Shown: in pieces, positions 7,431 through 26,646 of the stretch | Layout: the number at the start of each line of letters is the position of its first letter | Position numbering within the stretch: position 1 is the first letter of the stretch | Assembly (NCBI GenBank): GCA_963788685.1 | Contig: CAWBHP010000013.1 | Location: forward strand, 167,012 to 231,011 | Source: an uncultured Chloroflexia bacterium | GTDB taxonomy: Bacteria > Chloroflexota > Limnocylindria > Limnocylindrales > CSP1-4 | Reading direction: 5' to 3' | DNA: 64,000 nt | Notes under the pieces: generated by a model | The model's database searches: none | Told to the model about the DNA's origin: nothing | What the model saw: the letters and a program-made list of their open reading frames with translations, nothing else | Made by a program: the position numbers and the translations under genes

Positions 7431-8510
7431 CAGCCGCCGCGTGGCCCACGGTTCTGGACGAACTGGAAGCCGAAGCGGCCCTTGATGCAGAGGTGGCCGT
7501 CGGTCACCGACGAATCGAGCGGCGAATCGACCTTCACGATCGTGTTGTCCTGGACGTGGAGATTGAGCGCGCAGCCGACGCCGCAATACGGGCAGATCGT
7601 CTCGGTCACCGTCTGGGCGCTCTCGTCCCAGGTCCCGGCGGCGCGCATGTCGAACTCGGACTTGAACATCAACGCGCCCGTCGGGCAGACGCCGATGCAG
7701 TTGCCGCAGTAGACGCACGCCGAATCGGGCAGCGGGACCGCCTCCTCCGTGGAGATGCGGGCGTCGAAGCCGCGCCCAGCGACGGCGATCGCGAACGTGT
7801 TCTGGGCGTCCTCGCCGCAGGCCTCGACGCACTTGTAGCAGAGGATGCACTTCGAGTAGTCGCGGACGTACAGGTTGTTGTCGACCATGACCGGCTGAGC
7901 GACGGTCTGGGCCTGCTGGGCGTCGGCGCCGGTCGGGGCGTGGTGGTGGCCCGGCTCGTGGGCGTCGCGTTCGCCGGCCTCGGCGGGCGGCGCCGATGGT
8001 CCGTAGCGAGCGGTGTCGGCGCCGTAGCGCTCGATGTAGCCGCGCGGCCGACGGCGCGGTCGAGAGATCGACCGACGAGCCGAGGAACTCGAGGACCATC
8101 TTCCGGCTGTGGCGGACCCGCTCCGAGTCCGTCGAGACGTCCATCCCGGCCTCGACCTTGCGCGAGCAGGCCGGGACGAGGACGCGCGAACCCGTGACCT
8201 CGACGACACAGACGCGGCAGACGTTGACCGGGGTCAGGTTGTCGAGATAGCAGAGGGTCGGCGTGTCGATCCCCTGGGCCCGACATGCGTCGAGGATCGT
8301 GGAGCCGACCGGCACCGAGACCGCGGCGCCGTCGATCGTGATCTCGACCTCGGGGCGGGGTGGGGCCGGTGGCGGGGCCGGCGGACGGCTCGGGCGGGCT
8401 GCCGGCTTGAGGATGATCTCGGTGAGCGGCTGGGCGCCCGGGGCCTCGTGTTCGTGCGGCGAACGCCGATCGGGGGCGGGATCGCGATCCATGCTCAGCC
8501 CGTCGCTCAC
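7431..8510 (-). CDS. fdsA: NAD-type formate dehydrogenase alpha subunit, N-terminal fragment only (2Fe-2S, two 4Fe-4S domains, and the CPYCGVGC cluster motif); frameshift at about 8050; ends [16 protein letters not shown]
   Basis: Motifs include [64 protein letters not shown] and [24 protein letters not shown]. No molybdopterin domain follows. Confidence 0.75.
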
Positions 8511-9658
8511 AGCGCCACCAATTCCGGCTGGCGCATCGCGCTCTCGATCGCCGATGACGCCGTCTGGCCCAGGCCGCAGATGCTCGCATCGCGCATCGCC
8601 TGGCCGATCTCGGCGAGGAGCGCGAGCTCGTCCGTCGCGGCTGCCGAGCGGGCGCCGCGGCGGCGAGCCGGGCGAGGAGCTCCTCCTGGCGGACCGTGCC
8701 GACCCGGCACGGGACGCACTGGCCGCATGACTCGTCGCGGAAGAACTGGGCGATCCGGCGGAGCGTGTCGACCATGTCGGCGGTCTCGTCGAAGGCCATG
8801 ACGACGCCGGAGCCGAGGGTCGCCCCGATCGCGCGCGTCGCCTCGAACGTGAGCGGCGTGTCGAGCGCGTCCGGGCCGACGAAAACGCCCGCCGCGCCGC
8901 CGAGGAGGACGGCCTTCAGGTTTCGGCCGCCAGGGACGCCGCCTGCCAGCTCCAGCAGCTCGCGAAGGGTCGCCCCGAATTCGACCTCGTAGACGCCCGG
9001 GTCTCGCGACGTGGCCGCTGACGCAGAAGAGCTTCGGGCCGGTCGAGCCCTCCGTGCCGATCGCCCGGAAGGCGTCGGGGCCGCCGTTGTCGGCGAGGAT
9101 GAGGAGGACGTTGACGAGCGTCTCGACGTTGTTGACGGCCGTCGGCTTGCCGAACAGGCCGACTTCGACGGGGAACGGCGGCTTGTTGCGCGGCTCGCCG
9201 CGCTTGCCCTCGATCGACTCGAAGAGCGCCGTCTCCTCGCCGCAGATGTAGGCGCCGGCGCCGCGCCGCAGCTCGATGTCGAGGTCGCCGAGGAGACCAG
9301 CGTCCTTGCTCGCGGCGATCGCGTTCGCGATCCGCGCCTCGGCGAGCGGGTACTCGCCGCGGATGTAGAGGTACGCCTTGTCGGCGCCGACCGCGAATGC
9401 CTCGATCGCCATCGCCTCGACGACCGCGAACGGATCGTGCTCCATCAGGACGCGGTCCTTGAACGTTCCCGGCTCCGACTCGTCCGCGTTGCAGACGAGG
9501 TAGTGCGGCTCAGCGGCCTGCGCGGCGACCGCCGCCCACTTGCGGCCGGTCGGGAACGCCGCGCCGCCGCGCCCGACGAGGCCCGAAGCCGTCACCTCCT
9601 CGATGACGGCCTGGGCCCCGATCTGTGCGGGCTCGCTCGAGGGCCCGAAAGCCGCCAC
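8507..9658 (-). CDS. fdsB: formate dehydrogenase beta subunit (NuoF-like, NAD/FMN-binding); at least three frameshifts
   Basis: Motifs include [44 protein letters not shown] and FCVSGHV. In other frames are [13 protein letters not shown] and [10 protein letters not shown]. Confidence 0.7.
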
Positions 9659-10371
9659 TGGCGCGGTAGGCGTCGAGGGACGTCGGGTCGACGACGCCGA
9701 CGCGGGCGAGCAGCCGGAGCCCGGGCCCGCCGGCCTGCGGGACCGACGCGCTCGCCAACGGTCGGAGACTCGGCCGGTGCCGGAGTGATGCCGTTCGTCG
9801 CATCAGCGAGGCGAGCCGAGACGCCGACCGCGTCGACCGGCGCGGCAACCTGGGTCAGCGGATTCTCACCGGCAACCGTGAACATCGCGGCCGGCGCGCG
9901 CTCGCACAGGCCCAGGCACGGCGACGGCAGCCAGGTCGACATGCCGTCGGCCATCGGCGCGCCGGCCGGACCAAGCGTTCGCTCGAGGTCGGCCGTCAGG
10001 CCGGCGGCGCCCGCGAGCCGGCAGGCGATGTCGTCGCAGACGTGGGCGACGACGGGTGGCCGCGCCTTCGTCGCGAACAGGGCGTAGAACGTGGCAACGC
10101 CGTAGGCCTCCGCCGGCGGGACGCTGAGGCGGCGGCAGACGTAGTTGAGCGCCGGCTGGCTGATCCAGCCGATCCGCGACTGGACGGCGTGGAGTGCCGG
10201 GATCAGGAGGTCTCGGCGGGAGCGCGCATCGTGTCCGCCGCGAGCGACATGGCCCTCGGTCTTCGGGTCGCGCGCTCCGCCACGCCAGGCCGATTCCGCC
10301 GGCCCGAGGACCGCGTCCACGGCTGCCCGCTCGGCCGGCGATGCGAGCGGCCCGATGACGTGGAGGTCCAT
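9592..10371 (-). CDS. fdsG: formate dehydrogenase gamma subunit (NuoE-like 2Fe-2S thioredoxin-like); C-terminal end uncertain
   Basis: The motif is [41 protein letters not shown]...VCDDIAC. Confidence 0.65.
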
Positions 10372-10399
10372 GGCCTGAGTGTAGCGATCCTGAGCCGTG

Positions 10400-10944
10400 T
10401 CAGCCAGTGACGCGGGCGACCCACGCTCGGGCGATCGGATGGAGGGCCGCGTAGGCGTCCCACGTGCCGCGGGCCCAGCCGTCGACCGCCGCGCGATGAT
10501 CGACCAGGTCAGTTGCGGCCCGGACGGCGGCGATCGTCAGCGGCCCGCGCGTCTTGGGGAGAGGCGGCTTCGTCGAGCTCCGGCCGGCGGCTGAGCCACC
10601 GCTGGATCGCGGCATTGAGCTCCTCCTCGCGGCCACGGTGCTCCATCGCGATGCAGAGGCCGGTCAGATGCGCTGCCAACGAGGTCGCGGAGGCGCAGTA
10701 GCGCTCAGCGTGCTGCAGGCAGTAGGTATCGACGACCATCCGGCGCCGGGCGGCGAAACGGATGTCGGCGTACTCGCGCGCCGACTCGTCGTCGAAGATT
10801 GCCTGACAGCCCTCGACGCCGCCCTCGACGACGAGGCCGCAGCCGGAACACGCGTCCCGTCGATCGGCGGCGCGCTGACCTGGCTCGGCCGCGATCGGGG
10901 TGCCGGGACGGGAGCGCCGCCGGCGGTCGGACGTCTTCGGCCAT
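10400..10944 (-). CDS. hypothetical cysteine-containing protein between the fdhA 3' end and fdsG; apparent frameshift
   Basis: Fragments read ...DACSGCGLVVEGG...MVVDTYCLQHAERYCASATSLAAHLTGLCIAMEH... and ...DLVDHRAAVDGWARGTWDAYAALHPIARAWV*. No family was recognised. Confidence 0.25.
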
Positions 10945-12856
10945 TCAGCCGGCGCCGGCGGCCACCGGCAGCTTCTCGATGCGGATCGCCGTGGCCTTGA
11001 ATTCGGCGGTGCCGGACTTCGGGTCGGTCGCGTCGATCGTCAGGAGGTTCGTCGCGACCTCGTCCTGGAAGTGGAGCGTCATGAACGTCAGGCCCGGTCG
11101 GAGCGACGGGTCGATCCGGATCGGCGTCTCGACCTGGCCGCGCCGGGAGATCACGCTGACCCGCTCGCCTTCGGTCAGGCCGAGCCGCTCGGCGTCCTCG
11201 GGGCTGATGTCGAGCGACTCGCCCCGCCGCAGCGGCGAGGTGTAGCCGCCGGTCTGGACGCCGGTGTTGTACGAGTCGAGCCGGCGGCCCGTCGTCAGCC
11301 GGATCGGGAAGTCGTCGTCGAGCTTGTCGACCGGCGGGTCGTGGTCGACCGCGACGAACGGCACCCGATTGCCCGGGACCGGGTCCTCCCAGAGCCGGCT
11401 GTGGAGGAACAGCTCGCCCGGGTGGTCCTCGTCGTAGCACGGCCACTGGAGCCCGCCGAGCTCCTCGAGGCGCTTGTAGGACATGCCGGCGTGGACCGGC
11501 GACAGCGCTCGGACCTCGTTCCAGGTGTCCTCGGCGGTCTGCCAGCCGAACTCCTGGCCCATCCGTCGAGCGAGCTCGGCGATGATCCACAGGTCGTCGC
11601 GGGCCTCGCCGGGCGGGTCGAGGGCCTTGCGGACGCGCTGGACGCGGCGCTCGGAGTTGGTGACCGTGCCCTCTGCCTCGGCCCAGGCGGCGGACGCGGG
11701 CAGGACGACGTCGGCGAGCTCGGCGGTCGCGGTCAGGAAGAGGTCCTGGACGACCATGAAGTCGAGGCCCTCGAGGAGGCGTCGGGCGCGAGCCTGGTCG
11801 GCCTCCGACTGGAGCGGGTTCTCGCCGATGACGTACACGGCCGTCAGGTCGCCGCGCTCCATCGCGTCGAACATGCCCGACAGGTGCCAGCCGCGCTTCG
11901 GCGGCACGGTGACGCCCCAGTGCTTGTCGAATTTCGCCCGGAGCTCGTCGTTCTCGACGTGCTGGAAACCGGGCAGCCGATCCGGGAGGGCGCCCATGTC
12001 GCCGCCGCCCTGGACGTTGTTCTGGCCACGGAGCGGGTTGACGCCGCTCCCGTAGCGACCGACATGGCCGGTGAGCAGGACGAGGTCGATCAGGGCGAGC
12101 ACGTTGTCGACGGCGTTGTGGTGCTCGGTGATGCCGAGGGTCCAGCAGATCATCGCCTTGGGAGCGGTCGCGAAGGCGTGGGCGAGCTCGCGGATCGCGT
12201 CGGCTGGGACGCCCGTCTCGCGCTCGGCGTAGTCGAGGGTGTAGCTCTCGACCTTCGCCTTGTAGGCGTCGAAGCCGTCGGTCGCGCGGTCGATGAACTC
12301 CTTGTTCTCGAGCCCCGCGGCGATGATCTCGCGGCCGATCGCGTTGGCGAGGGCAATGTCGCTGCCGACGTCGAGGCCCATCCAGACGTCGGCCCATTCG
12401 GCCGACGACGTTCGGCGCGGGTCGATCGCGTAGAGCCGGGCGCCCTTGCGGACGCCGCGGAGGAGGTGATGGAAGAAGATCGGGTGCGTCTCGCGGGCGT
12501 TGCTGCCCCACAGGACGATCAGGTCCGTCTCTTCGGCCTCACGGTATGAACTTGTGCCGCCACCGGCACCGAACACGGTCGCCAGACCGGCGACGCTTGG
12601 GGCGTGTCAGGTGCGGTTGCAGCTGTCGATGTTGTTGCTGCCCAGCACGGCCCGGCTGAACTTCTGCGCCGCGAAATTGACCTCGTTGGTCGCCTTCGAG
12701 CACGAGAAGACGCCGAAGGTCGTGGGCCCGTGGGCGGCCTTCGCCGCCTGGAAGCTGGCCACGACCTTGTCGAGTGCCTCGTCCCAGCTCGCGGGGCGCA
12801 GCGTCGGCGCCCTTCGAGTCGCGAACGAGTGGCTGGGTCAGTCGAACGTAGTTCAT
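10945..12856 (-). CDS. fdhA: formate dehydrogenase alpha subunit, molybdopterin (bis-MGD) catalytic portion. It is a selenoprotein with an in-frame UGA at 12607..12609, lacks the N-terminal Fe-S domains, and has a frameshift at about 12808.
   Basis: RLTQPLVRDSKG...SWDEALDKV...SCSKATNEVNFAAQKFSRAVLGSNNIDSCNRT-U-HAPSVAGL matches the E. coli FdhF region around Sec140. GVNPLRGQNNVQGGGDMGALPD is also present. Confidence 0.85.
12578..12594 (-). promoter_or_regulatory. SECIS-like hairpin (GUCGCC-GGUCU-GGCGAC) starting 11 nt 3' of the UGA
   Basis: It is a perfect 6-bp stem with a GGUCU apical loop, at the same position and with the same loop as the E. coli fdhF SECIS. Confidence 0.5.
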
Positions 12857-13004
12857 CGGCACGGGTGTGCCTCCTGCGGAACGACGACATACAGAGTCTA
12901 ACGCGAGGGCTGTCGTGCCTGGTGCGCCATCGCGGCGTTGCCACCTGCGCGGTTTCGAAGGGCCTAGACTCCCGATCTGCACCGAAAGCGATGGGAGGGT
13001 TCGC

Positions 13005-13428
13005 GTGGATACACCTCAGAAGCGACGCTGGATCGGGCTGATCGTCATCGTCATCGTCGCCGGCGTCGCCGCGGCCTGCGCGGGCGCACAGCGCAAGCCC
13101 CTCGGCCTCGGCCGCAGCGGTGAGCCCCGCGGCCCCATCCGCGGCGACCGGCTCGGACGTCGCTCGCACGCTCGACGGGCCGGCCGAGGCCAAGGCCGGA
13201 TCGGCGATCGTCGTGACGTGGACCGGCGAGGTCCGGAACGGCGACTACGTGACCATCGTGCCAAGCGGCGGTTCGTACAAGGCAGATGACCCGTACGTGA
13301 ACATCTACGACACCACGTCCGCCACGCTCAAGGCACCTGCGGCGGCAGGGGAGTACGAGATCTGGTGGATCGAGGGCGACACGATCGACGTAGTCCTGGC
13401 TCGTCATCCGATAACGATCACGCCATAG
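13005..13428 (+). CDS. small putative lipoprotein or secreted protein; frameshift at about 13085
   Basis: A GTG start gives VDTPQKRRWIGLIVIVIVAGVAAACAG (lipobox-like), then ...SDVARTLDGPAEAKAGSAIVVTWTGEVRNGDYVTIVPSGG... follows in the +1 frame. Confidence 0.4.
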
Positions 13429-13561
13429 CGTTTCGCCGGTAGCGTTCGGATAGCGTTCCGCTGGCGCGCTGCTGTCGATCGGGAGGGCCTGGCCCCAACT
13501 CGCGGCCGCTGGCGGTGGCGTCGAGACCCCGCAGGGGGCGGTAGTGGGCGAACGCGAACCG

Positions 13562-14500
13562 TCACATCGCCGAAACGCGCCTCGGGCTGATGATCCGCGC
13601 CACAGCGGCTACGGCATCGTCGAGGGTCTCGGGCAACCGAGTGGCTCCGATCGCATCGGATATGTCATCGGCCAACGGACCGCCGACGGCGCAGATCAGC
13701 GGCCTGGATGTTGTCCGAAGGGCCTCGGCGACGACCGCAGCCTCGGCGACGTCGGAGTCTGTGACGACCGCCACGACCGCCACGGGTGCGCCGGTCTCGC
13801 GGACGGTACGCAGCCAGCTGTCGAGCGGCACGTTGGCGCCCAGGTAGAGCACGTCGAGCCCGATGCGCCTGGCGGCGACCGCGAAGGCAAAGGCGCCGAT
13901 CTCATGTTGACCCGCCGGCGGCAGCCCGACGATCACCTTCGGGATCCGATCACTGCGCCCGGCAGCGTCGAAGAATCGCGCGAGCCTGCGCCGGACCGTT
14001 TCGCTGGCGGCGTGCTCGACGGCGACGTCGATCTCGCCAGCCGACCACGCGTCGCCGATGCCTCGCAGCGCCGGGAACACGATGTCGTCCATCGCGGACT
14101 CGAAGCGCTGGGCGGCGAAAGACTCGTCGAGGATCTGCTCCATGGCCGGCACATCGAACTGATGGGCCGCCACGAGGAACGCATCGACCGCGAGCTCAGC
14201 CGATCGCGACGACGCGCCGCGATCGTCCGAGACCGGAGCCGCGCCCGGCGCGACATCCCACCCACCCACGGCAGCGTCTGCCCCCACCGCGAGCACGTGC
14301 TCGGCGGCCTGGCTCGGGCGCCAGCCCTCGTTCTCCACAAGACGGCGCATCGCCATCAGCCGTCCAATGGATTCGTCGTCGTACAGGCGATAGCCAGCCG
14401 CGGTCCGGCTCGGCCGAACGACCCCGTAGCGACGCTCCCAGACGCGAACCGTTGGGATGGTGAGGCCGGCTCGTGCGGCCGCTTCCTTGATCGTGTACAT
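13562..14500 (-). CDS. CarH/LitR-type light-responsive MerR-family regulator with a B12 (AdoCbl)-binding domain
   Basis: The MerR helix-turn-helix is MYTIKEAAARAGLTIPTVRVWERRYGVV. The Wx9EH motif is AWSAGEIDVAVEH. The Rossmann-like B12 domain has GQHEIG...SWL...VGGP. Confidence 0.8.
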   Translation of the reverse strand: MYTIKEAAARAGLTIPTVRVWERRYGVVRPSRTAAGYRLYDDESIGRLMAMRRLVENEGWRPSQAAEHVLAVGADAAVGGWDVAPGAAPVSDDRGASSRSAELAVDAFLVAAHQFDVPAMEQILDESFAAQRFESAMDDIVFPALRGIGDAWSAGEIDVAVEHAASETVRRRLARFFDAAGRSDRIPKVIVGLPPAGQHEIGAFAFAVAARRIGLDVLYLGANVPLDSWLRTVRETGAPVAVVAVVTDSDVAEAAVVAEALRTTSRPLICAVGGPLADDISDAIGATRLPETLDDAVAAVARIISPRRVSAM

Positions 14501-14557
14501 CGCGGCGCTACGTTGCGTGGAGCGACGTGATGGCCCAGATGGGCCGGCCTGGGCGCG

Positions 14558-15388
14558 TCACGGTCGCAGCGTCCCGGCGAACACCTGCCATGCAAGCAGC
14601 GTCTTCGCGATGAGGCTGAGCACCATGTACGCCCGTTCACCGAAGACGTAGTCGCGCCATCGTCCGATTCGGCGGTACTGGAGGACCATGTTGATCGCGA
14701 AGACATTGAATGAGATGAACAGCGAGATGTAGATCGCGATCACAAAGCCCGGAATGGGGGCCGCGCCTGGCGCGGTGATCCCGGTCACCAGCGCGACCCC
14801 GATGACGATCCACGGCACGGCGCCGGCGACGCAGCCGAACACGTAGTGGAGCCACTGGACCCGTTGTCGTCCCTCATTCGCGATCTCCATGCTCCATCCG
14901 AACAGGATCATCACCGCATTCACGCCGAAGATCGCAATGAGCGTCCCGATCTCGCGGATGCCGGTCAGGCTGGCGATGACCACGATCATGACGCTCGACG
15001 AGAACGCGTACTCGATCCACCGCGCCGGATTCTGACCGCGCGCCAGGTTTCGTTCGTACCAGGCGCGGAACGGGACCGCGACCGAGAGATGGGCGAGGGC
15101 GCTAAGCAGAAAGAAGAGCGCGACCGCCGGTCCGATCGGCAGGTCGAAGAGCGGCTGCTGGGCCTCGATGAGAGTCCGAGTTGAGGGCTCGAACCTCAGA
15201 TAGCTGCTGACGACTGGGGAGCTGACGACCGGATCCTTCGCAACGCTCAGCGCCAGCATTGCCAGGAACTGGGTGCCGTGCAGGGCCGCGAGCGCCAGGT
15301 TCCATCGGGACAGGAGCGCGCCACGCCCGCTGTCGATCGGGACTGGCAGGGGGATAGGCGCCGTGATCGCGGACATCGGTATCTCCAT
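14558..15388 (-). CDS. heliorhodopsin
   Basis: RWIEYAFSSSVMIVVIASLTGI..IAIFGVNAVMILFGW and GERAYMVLSLIAKTLLAWQVFAGTLRP are near-identical to heliorhodopsin 48C12 motifs, including the retinal-binding lysine in SLIAK. Confidence 0.88.
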   Translation of the reverse strand: MEIPMSAITAPIPLPVPIDSGRGALLSRWNLALAALHGTQFLAMLALSVAKDPVVSSPVVSSYLRFEPSTRTLIEAQQPLFDLPIGPAVALFFLLSALAHLSVAVPFRAWYERNLARGQNPARWIEYAFSSSVMIVVIASLTGIREIGTLIAIFGVNAVMILFGWSMEIANEGRQRVQWLHYVFGCVAGAVPWIVIGVALVTGITAPGAAPIPGFVIAIYISLFISFNVFAINMVLQYRRIGRWRDYVFGERAYMVLSLIAKTLLAWQVFAGTLRP

Positions 15389-15409
15389 GGGCCGATTGCG
15401 AGATTCGTC

Positions 15410-15463
15410 TGTTCATGGTTTGTCGAATATATCACGGGCCAAAGATTTGACAAACCATGAACA
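15410..15463. promoter_or_regulatory. perfect 15-bp inverted repeat (TGTTCATGGTTTGTC, 24-nt spacer, GACAAACCATGAACA) in the AT-rich divergent promoter; candidate operator
   Basis: The repeat is read directly from the sequence. It lies between the heliorhodopsin start and the DUF4397 gene start. Confidence 0.5.
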
Positions 15464-15558
15464 TCGCTGCTACCTTAGGCCAACCCTCATCAAAGGGTGA
15501 ACAACAACAGGCGTCGAGGCAACAGTCCGGACGCCTCAATCCAGAAGGAGCCAGCACC

Positions 15559-16431
15559 GTGAACCGTCTTCTCGTTCGAGTCACCCGCGTCGTCGCCGGC
15601 GCCGCGTTGGTGCTCACCATCGCCGCCCCGGTGAGTGCGGCAGACACGGCACAGGTCCGTGTCCTGCATGCCTCGCCCGACGCACCGGCCGTCGACGTCT
15701 ATCTCGACGACACAATCGTCGACGCCCTGACGAACGTCCCGTTCGGGACCAGTTCGGACTACCTCGCGATCCCCGCCGGGGACCACAACGTGAAGGTCTA
15801 CGCCACCGGCACGACGAGCGCGCCCGTCATTGACGCGGACGTCACCGTCGCGACCGGCAAGAAGTACACGATCGCCGCCACCAACGCGGTTGCCGCGATC
15901 GAGGCCCAAGTGCTCGAGGACACCCCGGCGCCGGACTGCGATACCGCCCAGGTGCGGGTCGTCCACTTCAGTGCCGACGCTCCCGCGATCGACGTCGCCC
16001 CGGCCGGCGCCGCGCCCGCCGATGCGGTCGTCAAGAACCTCGCCTACCCGAACGCGTCTGACTACCTGGCACTGCCGGGTGGCACGTACGACCTCGAGGT
16101 TCGGCTGGCCGGAACGACGACGGTCGCGCTGGCCCTGCCGGGCGTCGCGATCGAGGACTGCAACGCCTACAGCGTGTTCGCGATCGGCTCCGCGGCCGGG
16201 ACCCCGGTCGGCGGAAAGGCCCTCCAGGTCGTCGCGGCCCTCGACGGCGCGGCCGAGGCCGGGCCGAAGCCGGGGCGGGGCGACCCCGCCCGCGACCGAC
16301 ACCGCCGTTTCGGGCTCAGGCCCGTCGGCGCTCAGTGCCGGTTCCGTGATCGGGTTCGTCGTCGTGGCCGTCGCCGCCATCGGCACCGTCCTTGCCCTCT
16401 CGTTCCGGCGCGCCGGGCACCGAGGGCCTAG
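15559..16431 (+). CDS. DUF4397 repeat protein with a signal peptide and a C-terminal transmembrane anchor; frameshift at about 16280, end uncertain
   Basis: The GTG start is preceded by GAAGGAG. The repeats are VRVLHASPDAPAVDVYLDD.. and VRVVHFSADAPAIDV. The anchor VIGFVVVAVAAIGTVLALSF is in the +1 frame. Confidence 0.55.
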   Translation: MNRLLVRVTRVVAGAALVLTIAAPVSAADTAQVRVLHASPDAPAVDVYLDDTIVDALTNVPFGTSSDYLAIPAGDHNVKVYATGTTSAPVIDADVTVATGKKYTIAATNAVAAIEAQVLEDTPAPDCDTAQVRVVHFSADAPAIDVAPAGAAPADAVVKNLAYPNASDYLALPGGTYDLEVRLAGTTTVALALPGVAIEDCNAYSVFAIGSAAGTPVGGKALQVVAALDGAAEAGPKPGRGDPARDRHRRFGLRPVGAQCRFRDRVRRRGRRRHRHRPCPLVPARRAPRA

Positions 16432-16643
16432 GGGACTCCCGTACTCGACCTTCCCAGCGCGAGCCGGTCGCCCCTCCGGCCGGCTCTCGCCTCCTCGGGA
16501 AGGCGACGGGTCTGGCGGTCGAGCGACCTCGCACGCTCGTCGACGAGCTGCTCGAGCTGGCGGTCGTCCCCAGCTTCTCCCGGATCGGGCCGGCCGTCCG
16601 CCGGCGGCTGTTCGGTTGGGCGGCCCGCCGCCCGAGGCTGCGC

Positions 16644-17536
16644 ATGCCGGGCGGACCGTCCTGATCACCGGGCCGACGTCCGGGCTGGGCCGCGCGGCCG
16701 CCGGCGGCTCGCCGGGCTCGGCGCGCGGGTCGTCCTCGTCGGCCGCGAGCGAGGCCGGTTGGCCGCGGTCCGCGACGAGCTCGTCGCGGCCACGGCGAGG
16801 ACCGCTTCCCGATCGTCGTGGCCGACATGGCGTCGCTCGCCTCGGTCCGGGCGGCCGTGACGCGGATCCTGGACGACCGAGCCGCGGCTCGACGTGGTCA
16901 TCGACAACGCGGGCGCGATCCTCCCGAAGCGAACCGAGGGACCCGACGGGATCGAAGCGACGTTCGCGACGATGGTCGTCGGCCCGTTCGTCCTGGTCTC
17001 CGGCCTGCTGCCGCTGCTCCGTCGGAGCGGCGGCGCCCGGGTCATCGCGGTGACATCGGGCGGGCAGTACGCCCAGCGGCTCGACCTCGACGACTTGCAG
17101 CTCGCCGGCGGGCCGTTCGACGGGACGCGTGCGTACGCCAGGTCGAAGCGCGCCCAGGTCGGCCTCGTCCGTGAGTGGGCTCGGCGGCTCGGGAGGTCCG
17201 GAGTCACGCTTCGCATCGATGCATCCCGGTTGGGCCGACACGCCCGGACTCGCGGAGGCCCTGCCGGCCTTCCACGACCTCATGCGTCCGCTGCTCCGAA
17301 CGCCCGACCAGGGCGTAGACACGCTCGTCTGGCTCGCCGCCTCAACCACGAGCCACGGGGCGAATGGCCGCCTGTACCTCGATCGTCGGCCGCGCCCGTT
17401 CGACCGAGTCCCTGCCACGCGGCTCTCCGCGACTGATCGGCGGCGCCTCTGGGACAGCGTCGTCGCCCTCAGCGGGGCGCCCGACCCGGCCCCCGACCCG
17501 GACCTCATCCCAACCAGTGACCGGAGATCGACATGA
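16644..17536 (+). CDS. short-chain dehydrogenase/reductase (SDR) family oxidoreductase; about four frameshifts; possible N-terminal extension
   Basis: Motifs include TVLITGPTSGLGRAAA, VIDNAGAILP, YARSKRAQV and MHPGWADTPGL. The stop overlaps the next ATG (ATGA). Confidence 0.6.
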
Positions 17537-17994
17537 CCACGCTCACGAACGGATCGAGACACCCTGCCCATCGACGAGGCGTTCGCCTACGTCGCCGACT
17601 TCGCCAACTCCCAGGAGTGGGACCCGGGCGTCGCCACCGCCGAACGGCTCGACCAGGGCCCGGTCGGCGTCGGGTGCGCGCTACCGGCTCGGCGTCCGGA
17701 TGGGCGGCCGGGTCGCCCCGATGGAGTACCGGATCCCGGTCTTCGAGCCGCCGACGCGGGTCGTCCTGCCGGTGCCGGGTCCGGCGTGACGGCGGTCGAC
17801 GACATCCGCTTCGAGCGCCCGGCGACGCGGGACGCGCGTCGACTACACCGCCGACATCAAGCTCGGCGGCCTCCTCGGCCTCGTCCAGCCGTTCCTCGGC
17901 GGCGCCTTCGCGCAAGCTCGGCCGGAACGCGGCCGACGGCATGCAGCGGACGCTGCGACGGCGCGCGCGGCCGGCGACCGAGGCGGACGCGTCG
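17533..17994 (+). CDS. SRPBCC (polyketide cyclase/dehydrase-like) family protein; several frameshifts
   Basis: Motifs include ETLPIDEAFAYVADFANSQEWDPGVATAERL, RYRLGVRMGGRVAPMEYRIPVFEPPTRVVL and DIKLGGLLGLVQPFLGGAF. Confidence 0.5.
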
Positions 17995-19274
17995 ATGAAG
18001 GTCGCCATCGTCGGGGCCGGCGTCAGCGGCCTGACCGCCGCGTACGCGCTGACGCGAGCCACGAGATCCGCCTGTTCGACGCGGAGCCGTCGTCGGGCGG
18101 CCACGTCAAGACGGTCGCGGTGGAGACGGCGCCGGGCCGGTCGCGGTCGACACGGGCTTCATCGTCTACAACGAGCACACCTACCCGACGTTCATCCGGC
18201 TGCTCGCCGAGCTCGGCGTCGCGACCCAGCCGAGCGACATGTCGCTCGGGTCGGCCTGCCGGGCCTGCGGCGTCGAGTTCAGCTCGCGCGGCATCGGCGG
18301 CTACTTCGCCCAGCCGACGCGCCGTCGCTCGCCCGGGCCAGTGGCGGATGATCGCCGACATCCTGCGGTTCTACCGCGAGGCCCGAGCGACGCTCGACGC
18401 ACCGGCGCCCTCGACCGGGACGCTGGGCGACTTCCTCGACGACGGCGGCTATCGGCGCGGGCTTCCGCGACCACTTCCTCGTCCCGATCACGTCCGCCGT
18501 GTGGTCGACGGGCGCGGCCCGGATCCTCGACTTCCCGATCGACTACCTGCTCCGGTTCCTGGACCACCACGGCCTCATCGGCTACGGCAACGCGCCTCCA
18601 GTGGCGGACGATCCAGGGCGGCTCGATGCGCTACGTGGACCGGATCGTCGCAGCGCCTGCCGCCTGGCACGATCCGAGCCGGCAGCCCGGTCGTCGACGT
18701 CGTCGCGCCGCGTGGCGGGCGTCACGGTCCGGACCGAGGACGGCACGCCGGAGCGCGTTCGACGCGGTGGTCATGGCCACGCATGCCGACCAGGCCCTGG
18801 CCGTCCTCCACGACGCCGACGGCTGCGAACATGCCGCGCTGGGCGGCTTCGACTACTCGACCAACCAGGTCGTCCTCCACACGGACGAGCGCGTCCTGCC
18901 ACGCCGACTCGGCGCGCCGCGCGTCGTGGAACGTGGACCAGGAGGATTGCCGCGCGGCCGGGCGAGGCGCTCACGATGACGTACCACATGAACCGGCTGC
19001 AGTCGCTGGCCGGCCCGATCGCAGTACTCCGTGTCGGTCAACCCCGGCGACCGCGTCCGACCCGACCGGGTCATCGTGGAGCGAGCCATGAGCCATCCGA
19101 TGTACACGTTCCGGACGCTCGAGGCGCAGGCGGCCCTGCGCGGCCTGCAGGGCTGGCGTCGGCACGTAGTTCGCCGGGGCGCACCTCGGCTACGGCTTCC
19201 ACGAGGACGGCTGCCGGTCCGGGTTGGAGGTCGCCGACCTCGATCCGGCCGCGGCCGCGGAGCGAGCCGCATGA
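17995..19274 (+). CDS. FAD/NAD(P)-binding amine-oxidase-like oxidoreductase (UfaD-like desaturase); many frameshifts
   Basis: Motifs include [77 protein letters not shown] and [14 protein letters not shown]. Confidence 0.6.
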
Positions 19275-20020
19275 GGTCGCACCTGCTGGAGGGCATCGTC
19301 CGCCACCGGCGCGTCCGGCCGTTCACGTACGCGCTGGAGCACGGCGTGTTCTACGTCGCGCTCGACCTCGACGAGCTCGACGAGGTGCCGCGGCGGCTTC
19401 GGTTCGTCAGCCGGAACCGCCGGAACCTGCTGTCGTTCCGCGACGACGATCACCTGGTCCCGCCGGCCGCGCGACGTGCGCGCGTCGGTCCTGCGAACAG
19501 CTGCGGGCCGAGGGCGTGGATCCCGACGGCTGGCAGGTCACGCTGGTCACGAACCTCCGGTGCCTCGGCTACGTGTTCAACCCGGCCAGCTTCTTCCTCT
19601 GCCGCGATCGCGCCGGCGAGCTGCGGGTCGTCATCGTCGAGGTCCACAACACGCACGGCGAGCGGCACCTGTACACGCTCCGCGCGCGGACGACGGCGGC
19701 CGGCGGCTTCGTCGACTCGATGGACAAGGCGTTCTACGTCTCGCCGTTCATCGAGATGGCCGGGCGCTACACGGTCCGGGTCCGCGACGAGCCGGCCGCG
19801 TCTGCGGATCACGATCAACGAAGCCCAGGACGGACGGCCTCCTGCTGCACACGAGCCTCGACCTGACCCGCCGACGCCTGTCCGACCGGATGGTCGCTGC
19901 GGATGCTCCTGCGCCACCCGCTGGTCAGCCACAGGACGATCGGGCATGATCCACTGGCACGCCCTGCGGCTGTGGCTGCGCGGGGCCCGATTCCACCGCC
20001 ATGGGGAGGCGACACGATGA
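19271..20020 (+). CDS. DUF1365 family protein (UfaO-like); several frameshifts
   Basis: Motifs include [78 protein letters not shown] and [12 protein letters not shown]. Confidence 0.6.
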
Positions 20021-21283
20021 CCACGCCGACGACGTCCAGCCGCTCGCGCCGCGCGCTCGGCCGATCCCGATCCTGCTCGCCGGCTCGCGCTGGCGCATCG
20101 CGACCGGCGGCGGCGGACGCGATCGCGGTCGGGCACCTCGCGGTCGTCCTGCCGGACGGCAGCCGCCGGACGTTCGGCGATCGCGGCCGCCGACCGGCCG
20201 CGCCGAGATCCACATCCACGACACGCGAGCGCTGACCCGGCTCCTGTCGACGGCGAGACCGGTGGCGGCGAGGCCTACATGGACGGCCTGTGGTCCAGCC
20301 CGGACCTCGCCGGCCTCCTGCGCTGGGCCGCCCTCAACCGCGAGGCGCTGGCGCTGTCGGCCGGCTGGTTCCGGGCGCCGGCCCAGCTCCGGCGGACGAT
20401 CGCCCACCGCGCTCCGACGGAACACGAAGGGCCAGAGCCGCCGGAACATCGCGGCCCACTACGACCTCGGGCAACGACTTCTACCGGCCGTTCCTCGACG
20501 AGACGATGACCTACTCGAGCGCGGTGTTCGCCTCGCCCGACCAGTCGCTCGCGGACGCCCAGCGCAACAAGTACCGGCGCATGGCCGACGGCGCCGGCCT
20601 GCGTCGCCGGCCAGCACGTCCTCGAGATCGGGACCGGCTGGGGCGGGTTCGCCCTCTACGCGGCGGGCGAGCTCGGCTGCCGCGTGACGTCGGTCACGAT
20701 CTCGCAGGAGCAGCACGCCCTGGCCCGCGAGCGGGTCCGCGCGGCCGGGCTGGAGCGACCGGGTCGACATCCAGCTGCGCGACTACCGCGACATCGACGG
20801 GCACGTACGACGCGATCGTCTCGATCGAGATGCTCGAGGCGGTCGGCGCCGAGTACTTCGCGACGTTCTTCGAGGTCTGCGATCGCGGCGCTCGTGCCGG
20901 GCGGCCGGCTGAGCCTCCAGTCATCACGTTCCCCGATGCCGCCTACGAGCGCCAGCTCCGCGGCGCGAACTGGATCCAGACGTACATCTTCCCGGGCGGC
21001 CTGTGCCCGTCGCTGGCCGTCATCGAGCGGGCGACCGCGCGACACGCGGCTGCTCGTCACGCGACGTCACCGACATCGCCGCCGGACTACGTCCGGACGC
21101 TGCGTGCGTGGCGGACGCGGTTCATGGAGCCGGCTCGGCGACGGTGCGCGCGATGGGCTTCGACGACCGCTTCATCCGGATGTGGGAGTACTACCTCGCG
21201 CTGAGCGAGGCGGGCTTCGCGACCGGGATCAGCCAGGACCTCCAGATCGTGCTTCGAGAAGCGCCGCGGCAATCGCTGGTTAG
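20017..21283 (+). CDS. cyclopropane-fatty-acyl-phospholipid synthase family SAM-dependent methyltransferase (UfaM-like); many frameshifts; 3' end approximate
   Basis: Motifs include [108 protein letters not shown] and [22 protein letters not shown]. Confidence 0.65.
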
Positions 21284-23074: not shown

Positions 23075-23289
23075 CGAGCGGATGATAGGCGCGGCGTCCC
23101 TGAAACGACGCCCAGCAGCCACTGCGTTCGTCGCACTCAACTGCGTTCGTCGCGGATGGGCGTCGAGGGCGAGGCGCCCGGCGAGGACCGGAGCGAGCGC
23201 ACCCAAGGTGCGTGAGCGAGGACCGCTGCCGGGCAACGCCGCCATCGGCGTCCAGGCGCGACAGCCGTTCCCCGCAAGTAAGATTTGGT

Positions 23290-23386
23290 GGGAGCGGTCG
23301 GGTCCCGGTGGGCCCCCTGGTCTTCAAAACCAGTGGCGCAGCGCCAGGCGCGGCGCAGTGGGTTCGACTCCCATGCGCTCCCGCCA
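23290..23386 (+). tRNA. selC: tRNA-Sec (anticodon UCA)
   Basis: The anticodon arm is CUGGU-CUUCAAA-ACCAG. The D-arm has a 6-bp stem with a 4-nt loop (GGGUCC-CGGU-GGGCCC). There is a long variable arm, a T-arm GUGGG-UUCGACU-CCCAU, and a 3' GCCA. The acceptor stem has 7 pairs plus one G:G mismatch. Confidence 0.8.
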
Positions 23387-23395
23387 GGAGGATCG

Positions 23396-24774
23396 ATGTC
23401 GACCGAGACCCGTCCCCACCCGCCGAGCGTCGAGCGCCGTCGCGGCCGCGAGCCGGACGCGGCTGGGGGAGGGCCGCAGTCCTGAAGCGATCGTCGACGT
23501 CGCGCGCGCGGTCGTCGCCGAGGAGCGGGACCGACTCGCGGCCGGCGCCGAGCCGCGCACCGTCGACGCGCTCGCCGACGAGGTGGCCGCCCGGCTCGAC
23601 CGCCTCGGCGAGCCGGCGATTCACCGCGACGATCAACGCGACGGGCGTCATCGTCCACACGAACCTCGGGCGCGCGCCGTGGCCGCACGCGGCGATCCAG
23701 GCCGCGGAGGCGGCCGCGCGCGACTATCTCCTTCTCGAGCTCGACCGCGATTCCGGACGCCGCGGGCGCGCGCTTCCGGGCGGCCGAGGAGCACCTCGTC
23801 GCCCTGACCGGGGCCGAGGACGCGCTCGTGACGAACAACAACGCGGCGGCGGTCGCGCTGGCCGTCGGCCTCGCCGGGCGGGGTGGCGGTGTCGTCGTCG
23901 GCCGCGGGCGAGCTGGTCGAGATCGGCGGCGGCGTCCGGATTCCCGAGATCATCCGGCGGGCCGGGGCGAAGCTGATCGAGGTCGGGACGACGAACCGGA
24001 CCCGCGCCGAGGACTTCGAGCCGCCGCTCGCCGAAGGCCGGGCGCGGGTCGTCCTCCGGGTCCATCCCTCGAACTTCCGCCAGACGGGCTTCACGGAGGC
24101 GCCAGATCCCGCGGCGCTTGGCCGACGCTCGCTCACGGCCACGGCGCGATCGTCGTCGACGATCTCGGCTCCGGCGCGCTCCTGCCGACGGAGCGCTACG
24201 GCCTCGCCCACGAGCCGATGCCCGCGCGAGCGCCTGGCCGCCGGCGCCGACATCGTGACGTTCAGCGGCGACAAGCTCGTCGGCGGCCCCCAGGCCGGTC
24301 TCGTCGTCGGCCGCGCCGACCTCATCGCCCGGATCCGGCGCGACCCGCTGGCGCGGGCGATGCGGCCCGACAAGGTGACGCTCGCGGCGATGGCCGCGAC
24401 GCTCGGCCTCTACCGCGCCGGCCGGCGCCGAGGCGGAGATCCCCGTCTGGCGGATGATCGCCGCGGCGCCGGACGCCCTCCGCGAGCGTGCCGAAGCGCT
24501 CGCCAAGCGGCTCGCGGGCGCGGTCGAGGTCGTGTCGACCGAGGCGACGGTCGGCGGCGGTTCGCTGCCGGGCGAGACGCTGCCATCGTTCGGCCTGGCG
24601 CTGCGTGGCGGGTCGGCCGATCGGACGCTTGCCGCCCTGCGGCGGGGGAGCCCGGCAGTCGTCGGCCGGATCGAGGGCGGTCGGGTCATCCTCGACCTGC
24701 GGACGGTCGATCCCGGGCGCGACGCGGAACTGGAAGCGGCGATCAGCGCAGCCGTGGCGCCGCCGAGCCGTCAT
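23396..24774 (+). CDS. selA: L-seryl-tRNA(Sec) selenium transferase SelA; many frameshifts
   Basis: Motifs include [67 protein letters not shown] and VGGGSLPGE. The stop overlaps the selB ATG. Confidence 0.7.
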
Positions 24775-26646
24775 GACCGTCGTCGTCGGGACCGCGGGCC
24801 ACATCGACCACGGCAAGACGACGCTGCTCCGCGCGCTGACGGGGATCGATGCCGATCGTCTGCCCGAGGAGCGGCGGCGGGGGATGACGATCGACGTCGG
24901 CTACGCCCACCTCGATCTGCCGGACGGCACGCAGCTCGACTTCGTCGACGTCCCGGGGCACGACAAGCTCGTTGGAAACATGCTCGTCGGGGCGGGCGAG
25001 ATCGACGCCGCACTCCTCGTCGTCGCGGCCGACGACGGACCGCGGCCGCAGACGCTCGAGCACCTCGAGCTGCTCGACGCGCTCGGCATCGCCGATGGCC
25101 TGGCGGTCGTCACGAAGGCCGACGCCGTGGCACCGGAGCGGGCAACCGAAGTGGCCGCCGCCACGCGTGACCTGCTCGACCGAACGATCCTCGCCGGCGC
25201 CCCGGTCATCGTCGTCTCCGCGACCACAGGGGCGGGCCTCGACGAGCTCCGGACGGCGCTCGTCGCGCTCGTCGATCGCGTCCTCGCCCGGGGTCTGCCC
25301 GGCGGCCCCGCCCGGCTCGCGATCGACCGAGTCTTCAGCGTCAAGGGTCGCGGCACGGTCGTCACCGGGACGCTCCGCGGCGGCCCGATCGAGCGGGGAA
25401 TGACGCTGCGCCTGCTGCCCGGCGGGCGCGAGGCACGAGTCCGCGAGATCCAGGTCCACGGCGGGACCGTCGAACGGGTCGCCGCCGGCGGTCGAACCGC
25501 GCTCAACGTGGGCGGCGTCGAGGGCGGAGGACCTCCACCGCGGCATGGTCCTGGCCGGACCGCCAGCGGCCGACTGGACCGCCCCGCAGCCGCTGCGCGA
25601 CCGACCGGCTCCTCGTCGCCCTCCACCCGGTCGCGGACCTGGGCGGCGGGGTTCCGGGGATCCCGGCGGATCGGGCGCGGGTCCGGCTCCACACCGGGAC
25701 GGAGCAGGTCGGCGCGGTCGTCGGGCGGAGCGGCCGGGACACCGCCGAACTGCCGGGCGGCGAGGTCGCCGCGATCCTCCGGCTCGAGCGGCCCGTCGCC
25801 GTCGCCGCAGCGGATCGCTTCGTCCTTCGCCGGCCGTCGCCGGGCGGAACGCTGGCCGGCGGCCGGATCCTCGACGCGGTGCCACCGCGTGGCGTGTCGC
25901 GGCGCCGCACGACGCCCGAGCGCCTGGCCGCCCTCGCCGCGGCCGCGACGGGCGATGACGTGGCCTCCGCGCGACTCGACCTCCACGGCGCCATCGCCGG
26001 GAATCCCGTGCGGCTCGCGGACGATCTCGCGGCGGCGCTCCGGCTGGACATCCTCGCCGGCGTCGGCGCCTCCGGCGAGTGGCTGCCAATCGCCGACGTG
26101 CGGGCGCGCGGCGCATTGAGCCTTCGCCGCCTCGTCACGCTTTCGGCGGCGGACGCCCGTGCCGTCGCGTCGACCGTCGTTGAGGAGCTCGTCCGCGATG
26201 GCCGGTTGGCGGTGGATGGCGATCGAATCGCGGCGGCGGGCAGCGCGCCGGCGGGACCCCGGCCCGAGACGCTGGCCGCTATGGCTCGCCTCGAGTCGGC
26301 GCTCGACGTCCCTGCGCCGCCGCCGTTGTCGGAAGCCGCCCTCGCCGCAGCGTGCCCGTCCGATGGCATTCGGGCGCTGGAATCGGCCGGTCGGATCGTC
26401 CGCCTCGACGACGATCTGGCGTATGCCGCGGCTGCCTACCGCCGGCTCGAGGCGCGCGCCGTCGAGCTGGCCACGGCGTCCCCGCTCGCGCCTGCCGCCC
26501 TGCGCGACGCGACGGGAACGAGCCGCAAGTACGTCATGGCGATCCTCGAGGACCTGGATCGACGGGGAGTCCTGCGCCGAACGCCGGCCGGCCACGTGCC
26601 CGGTCCGCGCGCGGCCGCGGCCGCGGCCCCGACGACCCGGCCATGA
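24773..26646 (+). CDS. selB: selenocysteine-specific elongation factor SelB; frameshifts at about 25530-25600
   Basis: The G-domain is [24 protein letters not shown]...[10 protein letters not shown]-terminal winged-helix domains end [16 protein letters not shown]. Confidence 0.75.

Follow-up and report, generated by a model that had tools for sequence, protein, structure and literature searches.

Introduction

The role of the heliorhodopsins has been debated ever since their discovery in 2018, and the proposals made so far rest largely on the genes that neighbour them. The published neighbours include cobalamin-binding proteins, photolyase, oxidative-stress genes and short-chain dehydrogenases/reductases (SDR) (PMC11109279; bioRxiv 10.1101/2021.02.16.431466), and the statistics of these neighbourhoods have given the impression of a connection with lipid remodelling, light-using proteins and oxidative stress (bioRxiv 10.1101/2021.02.16.431466). 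Among the helR operons, one group is named "MerR family transcriptional regulator" by Cho et al. 2024 (PMC11109279), who read such neighbours as protein-interaction partners. The CarH regulators of Thermus, Bacillus and the myxobacteria, for their part, bind 11-bp repeats, with the experimentally defined consensus nnnnTnnACAn, as adenosylcobalamin-loaded oligomers that overlap the -35 or the -10 of a promoter (PMC9304148). Two further systems are relevant here: a class II LitR of Pseudomonas controls a phrB-SDR-FAD (flavin adenine dinucleotide) oxidoreductase-ufaM cluster (PMC9758184), and in Rhodobacter furan fatty acids are the products of UfaD, UfaO and UfaM, which belong to the singlet-oxygen regulon (PMC7380195). 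In this report we analyse a 64-kb stretch of DNA (64,000 nucleotides of contig CAWBHP010000013.1, hereafter the window) from an uncultured soil Chloroflexia bacterium, in which a heliorhodopsin gene is followed, on the same strand, by a carH-type gene. Judging from the sequence, we think it probable that the pair forms a light-derepressed operon of two genes (heliorhodopsin, carH) which is autoregulated by CarH and belongs to a CarH-controlled photo-oxidative-stress locus.

The two photoreceptor genes

The genes and their immediate signals are the following.
14558..15376, minus strand: heliorhodopsin gene, predicted first cistron, 272 residues from the ATG at 15376 (alternative ATG at 15388); from Pfam, NCBIfam and residues
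15383..15386, minus strand: Shine-Dalgarno sequence GGAG, 6 nt 5' of the heliorhodopsin ATG at 15376; from sequence reading and orthologous loci
14501..14557, minus strand: 57-bp spacer between the heliorhodopsin stop and the carH ATG; from consensus scan and RNA folding
13562..14500, minus strand: carH/litR-type gene, 312 residues, predicted second cistron, with a MerR winged helix-turn-helix, a four-helix-bundle B12-binding_2 and a Rossmann-type B12-binding domain; from Pfam and alignment

The intact minus-strand open reading frame (ORF) at 14558-15388 matches the Pfam Heliorhodopsin profile PF18761 over profile positions 1-242 of 242 (E 7e-93, 310.8 bits, cut-off 26.7) and reaches 311 bits with the NCBIfam HeR equivalog model, the cut-off of which is 100. 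When its product is aligned to the solved structures of 48C12 (6su3) and TaHeR (6is6), four key residues match: the Schiff-base lysine of transmembrane helix (TM) 7 (K241 of 48C12; SLIAKTLLAWQ versus SLVAKSALAWQ), the counter-ion glutamate of TM3 (E107; RWIEY versus RWVEY) and the histidines of TM1 and TM2 (H23 and H80; ALAALHGTQ versus AGVFHLLQ and SALAHLSV versus SALFHFIV), the roles of the conserved histidines having been treated by Chazan et al. (bioRxiv 10.1101/2021.02.16.431466). By these sequence features the ORF 14558-15376 is a canonical heliorhodopsin, for which an inverted membrane topology, retinal binding and a slow photocycle are predicted. Its true start is probably the ATG at 15376, because the arrangement GGAG-N6-ATG-TC is kept in orthologous loci and the upstream ATG at 15388 is not; the GGAG-N6-ATG is common to loci L001, L002, L003 and L081. 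Both genes are under purifying selection (dN/dS 0.11-0.23 for the heliorhodopsin and 0.19-0.32 for carH).

The product of the downstream gene has a MerR domain at its N-terminus (Pfam MerR_1 54.5 bits, cut-off 21.6; MerR 40 bits, cut-off 28.2), with residues 1-71 aligning to the DNA-binding domain of 3whp/5c8d and to 2jml. A B12-binding_2 domain follows (40.8 bits, cut-off 23), and residues 119-249 align to the cobalamin-binding structures 3whp, 5c8d and 8c31. Against Thermus thermophilus CarH (3whp/5c8d) the alignment has an E value of 1e-30; it retains both the Wx9EH motif, which caps the 5'-deoxyadenosyl group (AWSAGEIDVAVEH versus AWHRGEIGVAEEH of Thermus CarH), and the histidine that is the lower-axial ligand of the cobalt (PPAGQHEIG). 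In an alignment of 21 homologues W152, E162, H163, H199, G149, G221 and P225 are invariant. The light-responsive adenosylcobalamin-binding signature defined by SignatureFinder comprises GxxW, EH, GxxH and GxxxP (PMC11796333). Of these, GxxW (G149..W152), EH and GxxxP (G221..P225) are present and invariant, while GxxH reads A-G-Q-H, with the glycine displaced by one position, so that on sequence this CarH covers most of the signature. By its domains and residues the regulator is a class-I CarH/LitR, for which adenosylcobalamin binding, an oligomer in the dark and, on illumination, disassembly with release of the DNA are predicted.

A preliminary description of this DNA, made from the letters alone, had named the pair as a heliorhodopsin and a CarH/LitR-type B12 photoreceptor with a Wx9EH motif, encoded 57 bp apart on one strand behind an AT-rich promoter region in otherwise GC-rich DNA. 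The profile matches and the structure alignments bear out both identities; two intact minus-strand ORFs do lie on either side of a gap at 14501-14557; and the GC content is 0.54-0.57 in the upstream intergenic region and 0.71 in the window as a whole. Of the 20 well-scoring window ORFs that were scanned, there was none for the synthesis of retinal (blh or crt), of carotenoids or of B12.

The control region

The features of this region, most of which overlap one another, are listed here.
15448..15453, minus strand: -35 hexamer TTGTCA of the predicted heliorhodopsin-carH promoter, within operator site L; from consensus scan, GTCAA being invariant in the alignment
15426..15431, minus strand: -10 hexamer TATATT with an extended TG (15434-15433); from consensus scan, TAnnnT being invariant in the 10-locus alignment
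15410..15426, minus strand: predicted operator site R, two tandem 11-bp CarH-type repeats TCGACAAACCATGAACA; from pattern searches
15447..15463, plus strand: predicted operator site L, two tandem 11-bp CarH-type repeats TTGACAAACCATGAACA, mirroring site R; from pattern searches
15487..15503, plus strand: predicted site 2, one full repeat and one pseudo-repeat TCATCAAAGGGTGAACA within the conserved element TGTTCACCCTTTG; from pattern search
15471..15476, plus strand: candidate -10 TACCTT of a divergent promoter, with an 18-nt spacer from the TTGACA at 15447-15452; from sequence reading

A consensus scan of positions 13300-15700 (2.4 kb) found a sole sigma-70-like promoter, a strong one 5' of the heliorhodopsin gene, TTGTCA, 16 nt and TG-n-TATATT, which agrees with the consensus at 10 of 12 positions (0.3 sites expected). 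This promoter is flanked by a perfect 15-bp inverted repeat, TGTTCATGGTTTGTC at 15463-15449 and GACAAACCATGAACA at 15424-15410, each arm of which consists of 11-bp TnnACA units, two in tandem; for the extended arm pattern the window gives 2 matches, where 0.13 would be expected. Site R is directly 3' of the -10 and spans the predicted transcription start, near 15419. Because the sites overlap the -35 and the start, with a hexamer spacer of 16 nt, the layout is that of a repressor, and a MerR-style activation promoter (19-20-bp spacer, operator between the hexamers) was rejected. Site 2 is weaker and lies 40 bp farther out. When the window was searched for one NCA unit plus one ACA unit, this was the sole further match; in L082 and L084-L089 the site forms a full doublet, and its core is invariant in alignment A1.

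Site L also carries a perfect TTGACA (15447-15452) that faces the divergent gene on the other side. The candidate divergent promoter to which it would belong, TTGACA-N18-TACCTT, is too weak to be found by the consensus scan; the control regions of L085 and L087 show, on their opposite strand, an apparent equivalent TTGAC(A/G)-N18-TA(T/G)TGT, with the TA invariant in alignment A1.

Some other readings of this region were considered and discarded. The inverted repeat is not an RNA hairpin of the heliorhodopsin mRNA, as its left arm is 5' of the predicted start. A relaxed operator pattern (RCR for ACA) gave many GC-rich chance matches in the window and was not used. Rfam found no cobalamin riboswitch or other RNA element in the window except a tRNA-Sec located elsewhere.

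Specificity and conservation of the operator motif

Three independent lines of sequence evidence indicate that the strict doublet, TnnACA-N5-TnnACA, is a meaningful motif: its specificity within heliorhodopsin loci, its association with carH in metagenomes, and a footprint-like pattern of conservation. For the first, we have used 80 heliorhodopsin loci from species-representative genomes (798 kb), in which the doublet occurs 9 times, every time at the heliorhodopsin/DUF4397 control region of L001, L002, L003, L004, L048 or L052, and with zero background matches. Within the window too, it is restricted to the heliorhodopsin promoter. For the second, a metagenome scan with the CarH protein gave 64 loci (43-84% identity), 61 of them with at least 100 bp of upstream sequence. 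The strict doublet was present upstream of carH in 60 of these 61, and 124 of the 125 metagenomic doublets were located within -130 to +5 of the carH start, against 0.5 per whole 186 kb in shuffled sequence. Their offsets are sharp: -10 in plus orientation (24 loci), and -47/-36 and -78/-89 in minus orientation, where -47 is the commonest offset and a -88/-89 class occurs as well. Measured from a relic start codon at 15416 that is discussed below, the window sites lie at exactly -10 (site R), -47 (site L) and -89 (site 2). As to conservation, the invariant columns in an alignment of ten control regions are the T and ACA of the repeats, the -35 and the -10; the "nn" positions vary among species, with the two arms of the inverted repeat changing in parallel.

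One locus departs from this spacing. In L048 (5544-5965) the operator arms are 382 nt apart versus 24: an insert of about 360 bp separates the -35/site L of the heliorhodopsin promoter from its -10/site R.

Probable origin of the two-gene unit and predicted co-transcription

A comparison was made with carH genes which have no heliorhodopsin neighbour. We examined eight such loci (L082-L089), with carH orthologues of 64-71% identity. They share the promoter (TTGTCA or TCGTCA at the -35, TATATT or TATGCT at the -10), and their carH is leaderless or nearly so, beginning at an ATG or GTG within site R (CAAACCATGTACAcgatcaag = MYTIK; …CAAACCATGTACACGATCAAG = MYTIK…). Site R of the window still reads CAAACCATGAACA, followed by a 5' untranslated region of about 40 nt, the Shine-Dalgarno sequence and the heliorhodopsin ORF; the relic of the carH start codon persists as an ATG at 15416-15414, within CCATGAACA, and carH itself (MYTIKEAA…) begins 57 bp past the heliorhodopsin stop. 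Because carH-only relatives start carH in site R and the window keeps a relic ATG there, the simplest reading is an insertion, by which a heliorhodopsin ORF with a Shine-Dalgarno sequence of its own came between the promoter/operator of an ancestral leaderless carH and the carH coding sequence.

The relic ATG also opens a 104-aa ORF (15102-15416), which we rejected as a leaderless gene: it overlaps the heliorhodopsin out of frame, and its start is ATT in the nearly identical L004. A side result concerns annotation. The carH models of L082, P0126, P0172 and P0237 have N-terminal extensions of 5-16 residues, with the annotated start 5' of the operator; from the conserved MYTIK start in site R, it appears that these database models missed leaderless starts.

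The insertion also provides the best argument for co-transcription, because the heliorhodopsin would have parted carH from its own promoter and operator. In addition, the consensus scan of the 57-bp gap detected no promoter-like or terminator-like site, and the RNA of this spacer, like that of three orthologous ones, gave unexceptional folds compared to shuffled sequence (z -0.55 to +0.71) and had no U-tract. In the four loci where the heliorhodopsin precedes carH, the gaps likewise lack signals resembling a promoter or a terminator, and they are poorly conserved apart from the carH start. Co-transcription of both genes from one promoter is thus well supported by the sequence. The preliminary description had proposed a single transcription unit and, as a consequence, light-gated expression of the heliorhodopsin. 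The first proposal gains from the absence of signals in the gap and from the displacement of the ancestral carH promoter, which now stands before the heliorhodopsin. For the second there is strong, if indirect, sequence support in a promoter flanked by CarH-type operators that are otherwise found almost only before carH. The description had also named, as an alternative, a photo-response module in which both proteins take part; for a direct contact between them, the sequence evidence is neutral.

Distribution of the pairing

The nearest relatives of the window are labelled Candidatus Limnocylindrales. A survey of the neighbours of heliorhodopsin homologues, which the preliminary description had called for, gave a divided answer. 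The pairing does recur in relatives (L001, L004, L048 and L081), but it is not general: heliorhodopsin followed by carH is found in only three of the 80 loci (L001, L004 and L048, with heliorhodopsin identities of 92%, 100% and 83%). A universal heliorhodopsin-CarH pairing must therefore be rejected, as the CarH profile search was positive, with a full-length CarH within about 6 kb, in 5/80 loci. In the heliorhodopsin tree the operator-bearing genes (the window, L004, L001, L002, L003 and L081) make up one clade, with L005, which has neither operator nor carH, as a basal member. Apart from a few independent arrangements in other loci, the pairing is limited to a single small clade of Limnocylindrales-type Chloroflexota.

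These arrangements are quite varied. In L081 the heliorhodopsin precedes carH behind a near-canonical operator, with wholly different flanks. In L052 carH is divergent from the heliorhodopsin; in L094 and L139 it is divergent from a DUF378-like gene that is followed by the heliorhodopsin; in L058 it is divergent from DUF4397, with further genes next and the heliorhodopsin after them; and in L119 it lies near a convergent heliorhodopsin-SDR pair. The linkages in L052, L094/L139, L058 and L119 arose independently, and these, together with the other flanks of the L081 pair, argue that the link between heliorhodopsin and carH is real.

Two of these loci deserve a brief description of their own. 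The gene between the operator and the heliorhodopsin (about 72% identity) in L094 (3545-3900) and L139 (1419-1760) encodes a small, putatively DUF378-like membrane protein (MRYLQALALLLVIVGGVNWLL…), so labelled from a reading of its sequence; a long GC-rich hairpin follows it. In L058 (3540-3690) the distant CarH-like gene (30% identity) that is divergent from DUF4397 is separated from it by an intergenic region with five 11-bp-phased TnnGCA units around a TTGACA, which suggests a variant repeat, GCA for ACA, in this branch of the CarH family.

The neighbouring genes

On the divergent side of the control region lie the following genes.
15559..16431, plus strand: DUF4397 gene, divergent, product secreted or membrane-anchored, GTG start after GAAGGAG; Pfam DUF4397, E 7e-44
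16530..21270, plus strand: SDR, SRPBCC/Polyketide_cyc2, FAD amine-oxidase-like (UfaD-like), DUF1365 (UfaO-like) and cyclopropane-fatty-acyl-phospholipid-synthase-like methylase (UfaM-like) genes; from tblastn of L002 proteins

The five-gene cluster is found beside carH in the window and in nearly every context retrieved by exact-protein look-up (L082-L088); the contig of L089 is too short and shows only a cut upstream gene. DUF4397 is often present in these contexts and is divergent from carH in L082, L083, L058 and several metagenomic loci, and L084 has a photolyase 3' of carH. The CMAS, Amino_oxidase and DUF1365 domains in one cluster are the domain set of UfaM, UfaD and UfaO, a match at the level of domains, the window copies being frameshifted. 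Given its gene content, the most fitting view of the locus is that of a photo-oxidative-stress module, B12-dependent and under the control of light, that acquired a heliorhodopsin.

The intact proteins of L002 were mapped to the window by tblastn, and this mapping, with which a GC3 frame plot agrees, revealed frame changes within single genes at 16200-21270 on the plus strand (the SDR, SRPBCC, UfaD-like, DUF1365 and CMAS-like genes) and at 8500-10400 on the minus strand (NuoEF-like genes). Such repeated changes fit indel errors of the assembly better than pseudogenes; the ORFs of heliorhodopsin and carH are both intact. We note also that the SDR gene (L002 3844-4824 versus window 16530-17497) runs the opposite way in L002, L082, L084 and L088 compared to the window and L085-L087, and because of this inversion the operon structure on the divergent side differs between close relatives.

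The region 3' of carH has some features of separate interest. A 700-bp stretch between carH and fdhA, which is missing in L002, contains a 102-aa ORF (13120-13428, plus strand) with only a weak Ig-like Pfam match (Ig_TgrO1, E 0.003) and may be part of a larger gene that is frameshifted. The formate dehydrogenase alpha gene itself (10945-12862, minus strand) has an in-frame TGA (12609-12607) at the canonical selenocysteine position (…IDSCNRT*HAPSVAGL…). A tRNA-Sec (23288-23386, plus strand) and a SelB-like GTPase of the EF-Tu family (GTP_EFTU; 24605-26119, plus strand) are situated some 11 kb from fdhA, and the locus thus probably encodes a selenoprotein FdhA and part of its decoding machinery.

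Proposed regulation and alternatives

Taken together, these features suggest the following scheme. In the dark, adenosylcobalamin-bound CarH oligomers would occupy the TnnACA doublets of sites R, L and 2; at site L they would cover the -35 and at site R the transcription start, and so block RNA polymerase. As site L also holds the -35 of the putative divergent promoter, which would serve DUF4397 and the furan-fatty-acid-type cluster, repression would extend in both directions. Light from the UV to the green would then photolyse the Co-C bond, the oligomer would dissociate and both promoters would fire, so that heliorhodopsin would be produced only in the light. CarH, with no promoter of its own and encoded on the same transcript, would exert negative feedback and reset the switch. 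We infer from sequence the binding of CarH to the sites, the dependence on B12 and light, the co-transcription and the action of the heliorhodopsin once made. The scheme is supported because the linkage of carH to ufaD/ufaO/ufaM-like genes and to photolyase matches the LitR (PMC9758184) and singlet-oxygen (PMC7380195) regulons.

A number of observations weigh against this proposal. The window comes from a metagenome-assembled genome and has many frameshifts near the pair. Most heliorhodopsins, including a large sister group of about 70% identity from related Chloroflexota metagenome-assembled genomes, have neither carH nor operator. L002 and L003 keep the promoter/operator (and DUF4397) before the heliorhodopsin with no adjacent carH, fdhA being directly 3' of the heliorhodopsin in L002; regulation in these two would need action in trans or another factor. 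With two inverted doublets at a distance of 37 bp and a third site, the operator has a geometry unlike that of the characterised arrays of 3-4 tandem repeats. In the regulator, the Rossmann B12-binding Pfam score (28.9) is slightly under the gathering threshold of 32.1, and the equivalog model NF052513 (TransRegCarH) of NCBIfam gives 143 bits against a cut-off of 400; it is the best-scoring family, but the regulator is no equivalog of the curated CarH proteins. The acidic residue expected at -2 of the axial His199, from (D/E)xHxxG, is a glycine (QHEIG loop), and the position of Thermus His132, after the Trp, is Ser in the window and Ser, Ala or Glu in relatives. In Thermus CarH, His132 is the upper-axial ligand of the bis-His light-state adduct; it is not known to be family-defining. 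Finally, heliorhodopsin transcripts of the actinobacterium Aurantimicrobium rise in the dark (PMC8591293), because of which light induction cannot be general to heliorhodopsins.

Of the alternative explanations, the one that survives best, although we judge it quite unlikely, is that the heliorhodopsin binds CarH directly as a membrane-anchored, light-dependent co-sensor or anti-repressor that alters the DNA binding or the location of CarH, with co-transcription assuring stoichiometric assembly instead of, or in addition to, light-gated expression. There are precedents of a kind: heliorhodopsins have been reported to bind or modulate the products of adjacent genes (a glutamine synthetase, PMC9529153; an ABC transporter, PMC11109279), the MerR-family group is one of ten neighbour groups proposed as likely protein-protein interactors (PMC11109279), the class II LitR of Pseudomonas is the effector of an adjacently encoded short-LOV photoreceptor (PMC9758184), and in L081 the pair has moved together into other flanks. 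But this CarH has by sequence a complete B12 photosensory module of its own, most genomes with CarH orthologues have no heliorhodopsin nearby, L002 retains heliorhodopsin and operator with no adjacent carH, and the other heliorhodopsin-carH arrangements, divergent or distant as they are, fit co-regulation better than obligatory co-assembly. Moreover, heliorhodopsin and adenosylcobalamin absorption overlap in the green, so that no spectral window would be gained.

It seems very unlikely to us that the regulator responds to B12 status rather than to light, or is independent of B12 like the CarA of Myxococcus, in which case the heliorhodopsin would not be light-gated. Family members that are independent of B12 or light do exist, CarA (PMC9304148) and LitR classes II-V (PMC9758184), and the missing His132, the AGQH variant of GxxH and the sub-threshold Rossmann score could all be read in this way. 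Against it stand the Wx9EH, axial His, GxxW and GxxxP, which are invariant across the lineage and are elements tied to light-responsive adenosylcobalamin binding (PMC11796333), as well as neighbours typical of light and photo-oxidative stress: the photolyase of L084, the ufaD/ufaO/ufaM-like genes and the heliorhodopsin itself. An incidental adjacency produced by rearrangement, with the inverted repeat being the site of another factor or a plain promoter and the heliorhodopsin being constitutive, is likewise highly improbable: the pairing is indeed rare (3/80 for heliorhodopsin then carH, 5/80 for any CarH within 6 kb), cobalamin-binding neighbours are, according to Chazan et al., equally near proton-pump rhodopsins (bioRxiv 10.1101/2021.02.16.431466), and the repeat occurs in L002 and L003 with no adjacent carH, but the doublets are tied almost exclusively to carH starts and match the CarH repeat of PMC9304148, their T and ACA positions are conserved while others drift, and the pair is under purifying selection and recurs in other flanks and architectures.

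The CarH-autoregulated operon therefore remains our preferred explanation, and its value is that it offers a concrete and testable regulatory link: synthesis of the heliorhodopsin should be light-switched and B12-dependent. Co-regulation with photolyase-type and furan-fatty-acid-type genes would fit the earlier suggestion of oxidative stress and lipid remodelling. The operator grammar (doublets at -10, -47 and -78/-89, leaderless carH) of these uncultured CarH relatives, which are apparently mostly Chloroflexota, could help in the prediction of light regulons in metagenome-assembled genomes, and the locus would provide a natural green-light switch of compact size. Should the link be wrong, we are left with two ordinary photoreceptor genes that are neighbours by chance. 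Going one step further, one might speculate, with considerable reserve, that the heliorhodopsin is a working part of the CarH photo-stress module, either as a membrane light sensor feeding back on CarH (a retinal-based co-sensor or anti-repressor) or by switching on the co-regulated furan-fatty-acid-type enzymes of lipid remodelling. This we hold to be unlikely; were it true, heliorhodopsins would gain a defined role in photo-oxidative membrane protection and this would be the first retinal photoreceptor coupled to a B12 photoreceptor.

Comparison with known systems

The proteins encoded here are ordinary members of known families, and the regulatory logic is the known CarH/LitR logic. The domains of UfaD, DUF1365 (UfaO) and UfaM, together with an SDR, liken the flanking cluster to RSP1087-1091/ufaM of Rhodobacter sphaeroides (PMC7380195). 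The Rhodobacter genes, however, are in a sigmaE-ChrR regulon (an extracytoplasmic function sigma factor with its anti-sigma), whereas the proposed control in the window is by a CarH repressor and the enzyme functions are taken from domains only.

The Pseudomonas class II LitR (PplR/PmlR) and short-LOV system (PMC9758184) provides a second parallel, as there too a LitR-family gene lies beside a second, unrelated photoreceptor gene; the photolyase, SDR, FAD oxidoreductase and UfaM of its light regulon resemble the clusters that flank carH. Yet this LitR has no B12 Rossmann domain and receives its light input from the LOV protein, in contrast to the window regulator, which has a full B12 module and a membrane retinal protein as its neighbour.

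With respect to heliorhodopsin neighbours, the CarH identity of a MerR neighbour, an operator or promoter, and light-gated transcription appear in neither main text nor the supplements of PMC11109279 outside the MerR-group Supplementary Data, and the supplement text of that paper, in its accessible part, contains no occurrences of MerR proteins neighbouring heliorhodopsins. As far as this literature shows, what would be new is that the neighbour is a bona fide class-I CarH, that the heliorhodopsin promoter is the autoregulatory promoter/operator of CarH, that the heliorhodopsin was inserted into a leaderless carH unit, and the operator grammar of a large uncultured lineage, all as read from the sequences.

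The closest resemblance is to the class I CarH systems of Thermus thermophilus (LitR, TT_P0056), Bacillus megaterium and the myxobacteria, with which the window shares the domain order, the Wx9EH and the lower-axial His, as well as a sigma-70-type promoter whose -35 and start are overlapped by 11-bp TnnACA repeats (PMC9304148). In these systems, as proposed here, the regulator gene is itself a member of the regulon, and the control region may act in both directions. The window protein differs from Thermus CarH in the Ser at the His132 position, in the leaderless state of the ancestral carH, in an overall identity of about 30% and in a score below the NCBIfam CarH equivalog cut-off. The operator differs in having three doublets about 37-40 bp apart, one of them inverted, in place of 3-4 contiguous tandem repeats. 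Finally, the predicted target is a different one: carotenoid genes in the class I systems, and a heliorhodopsin here.

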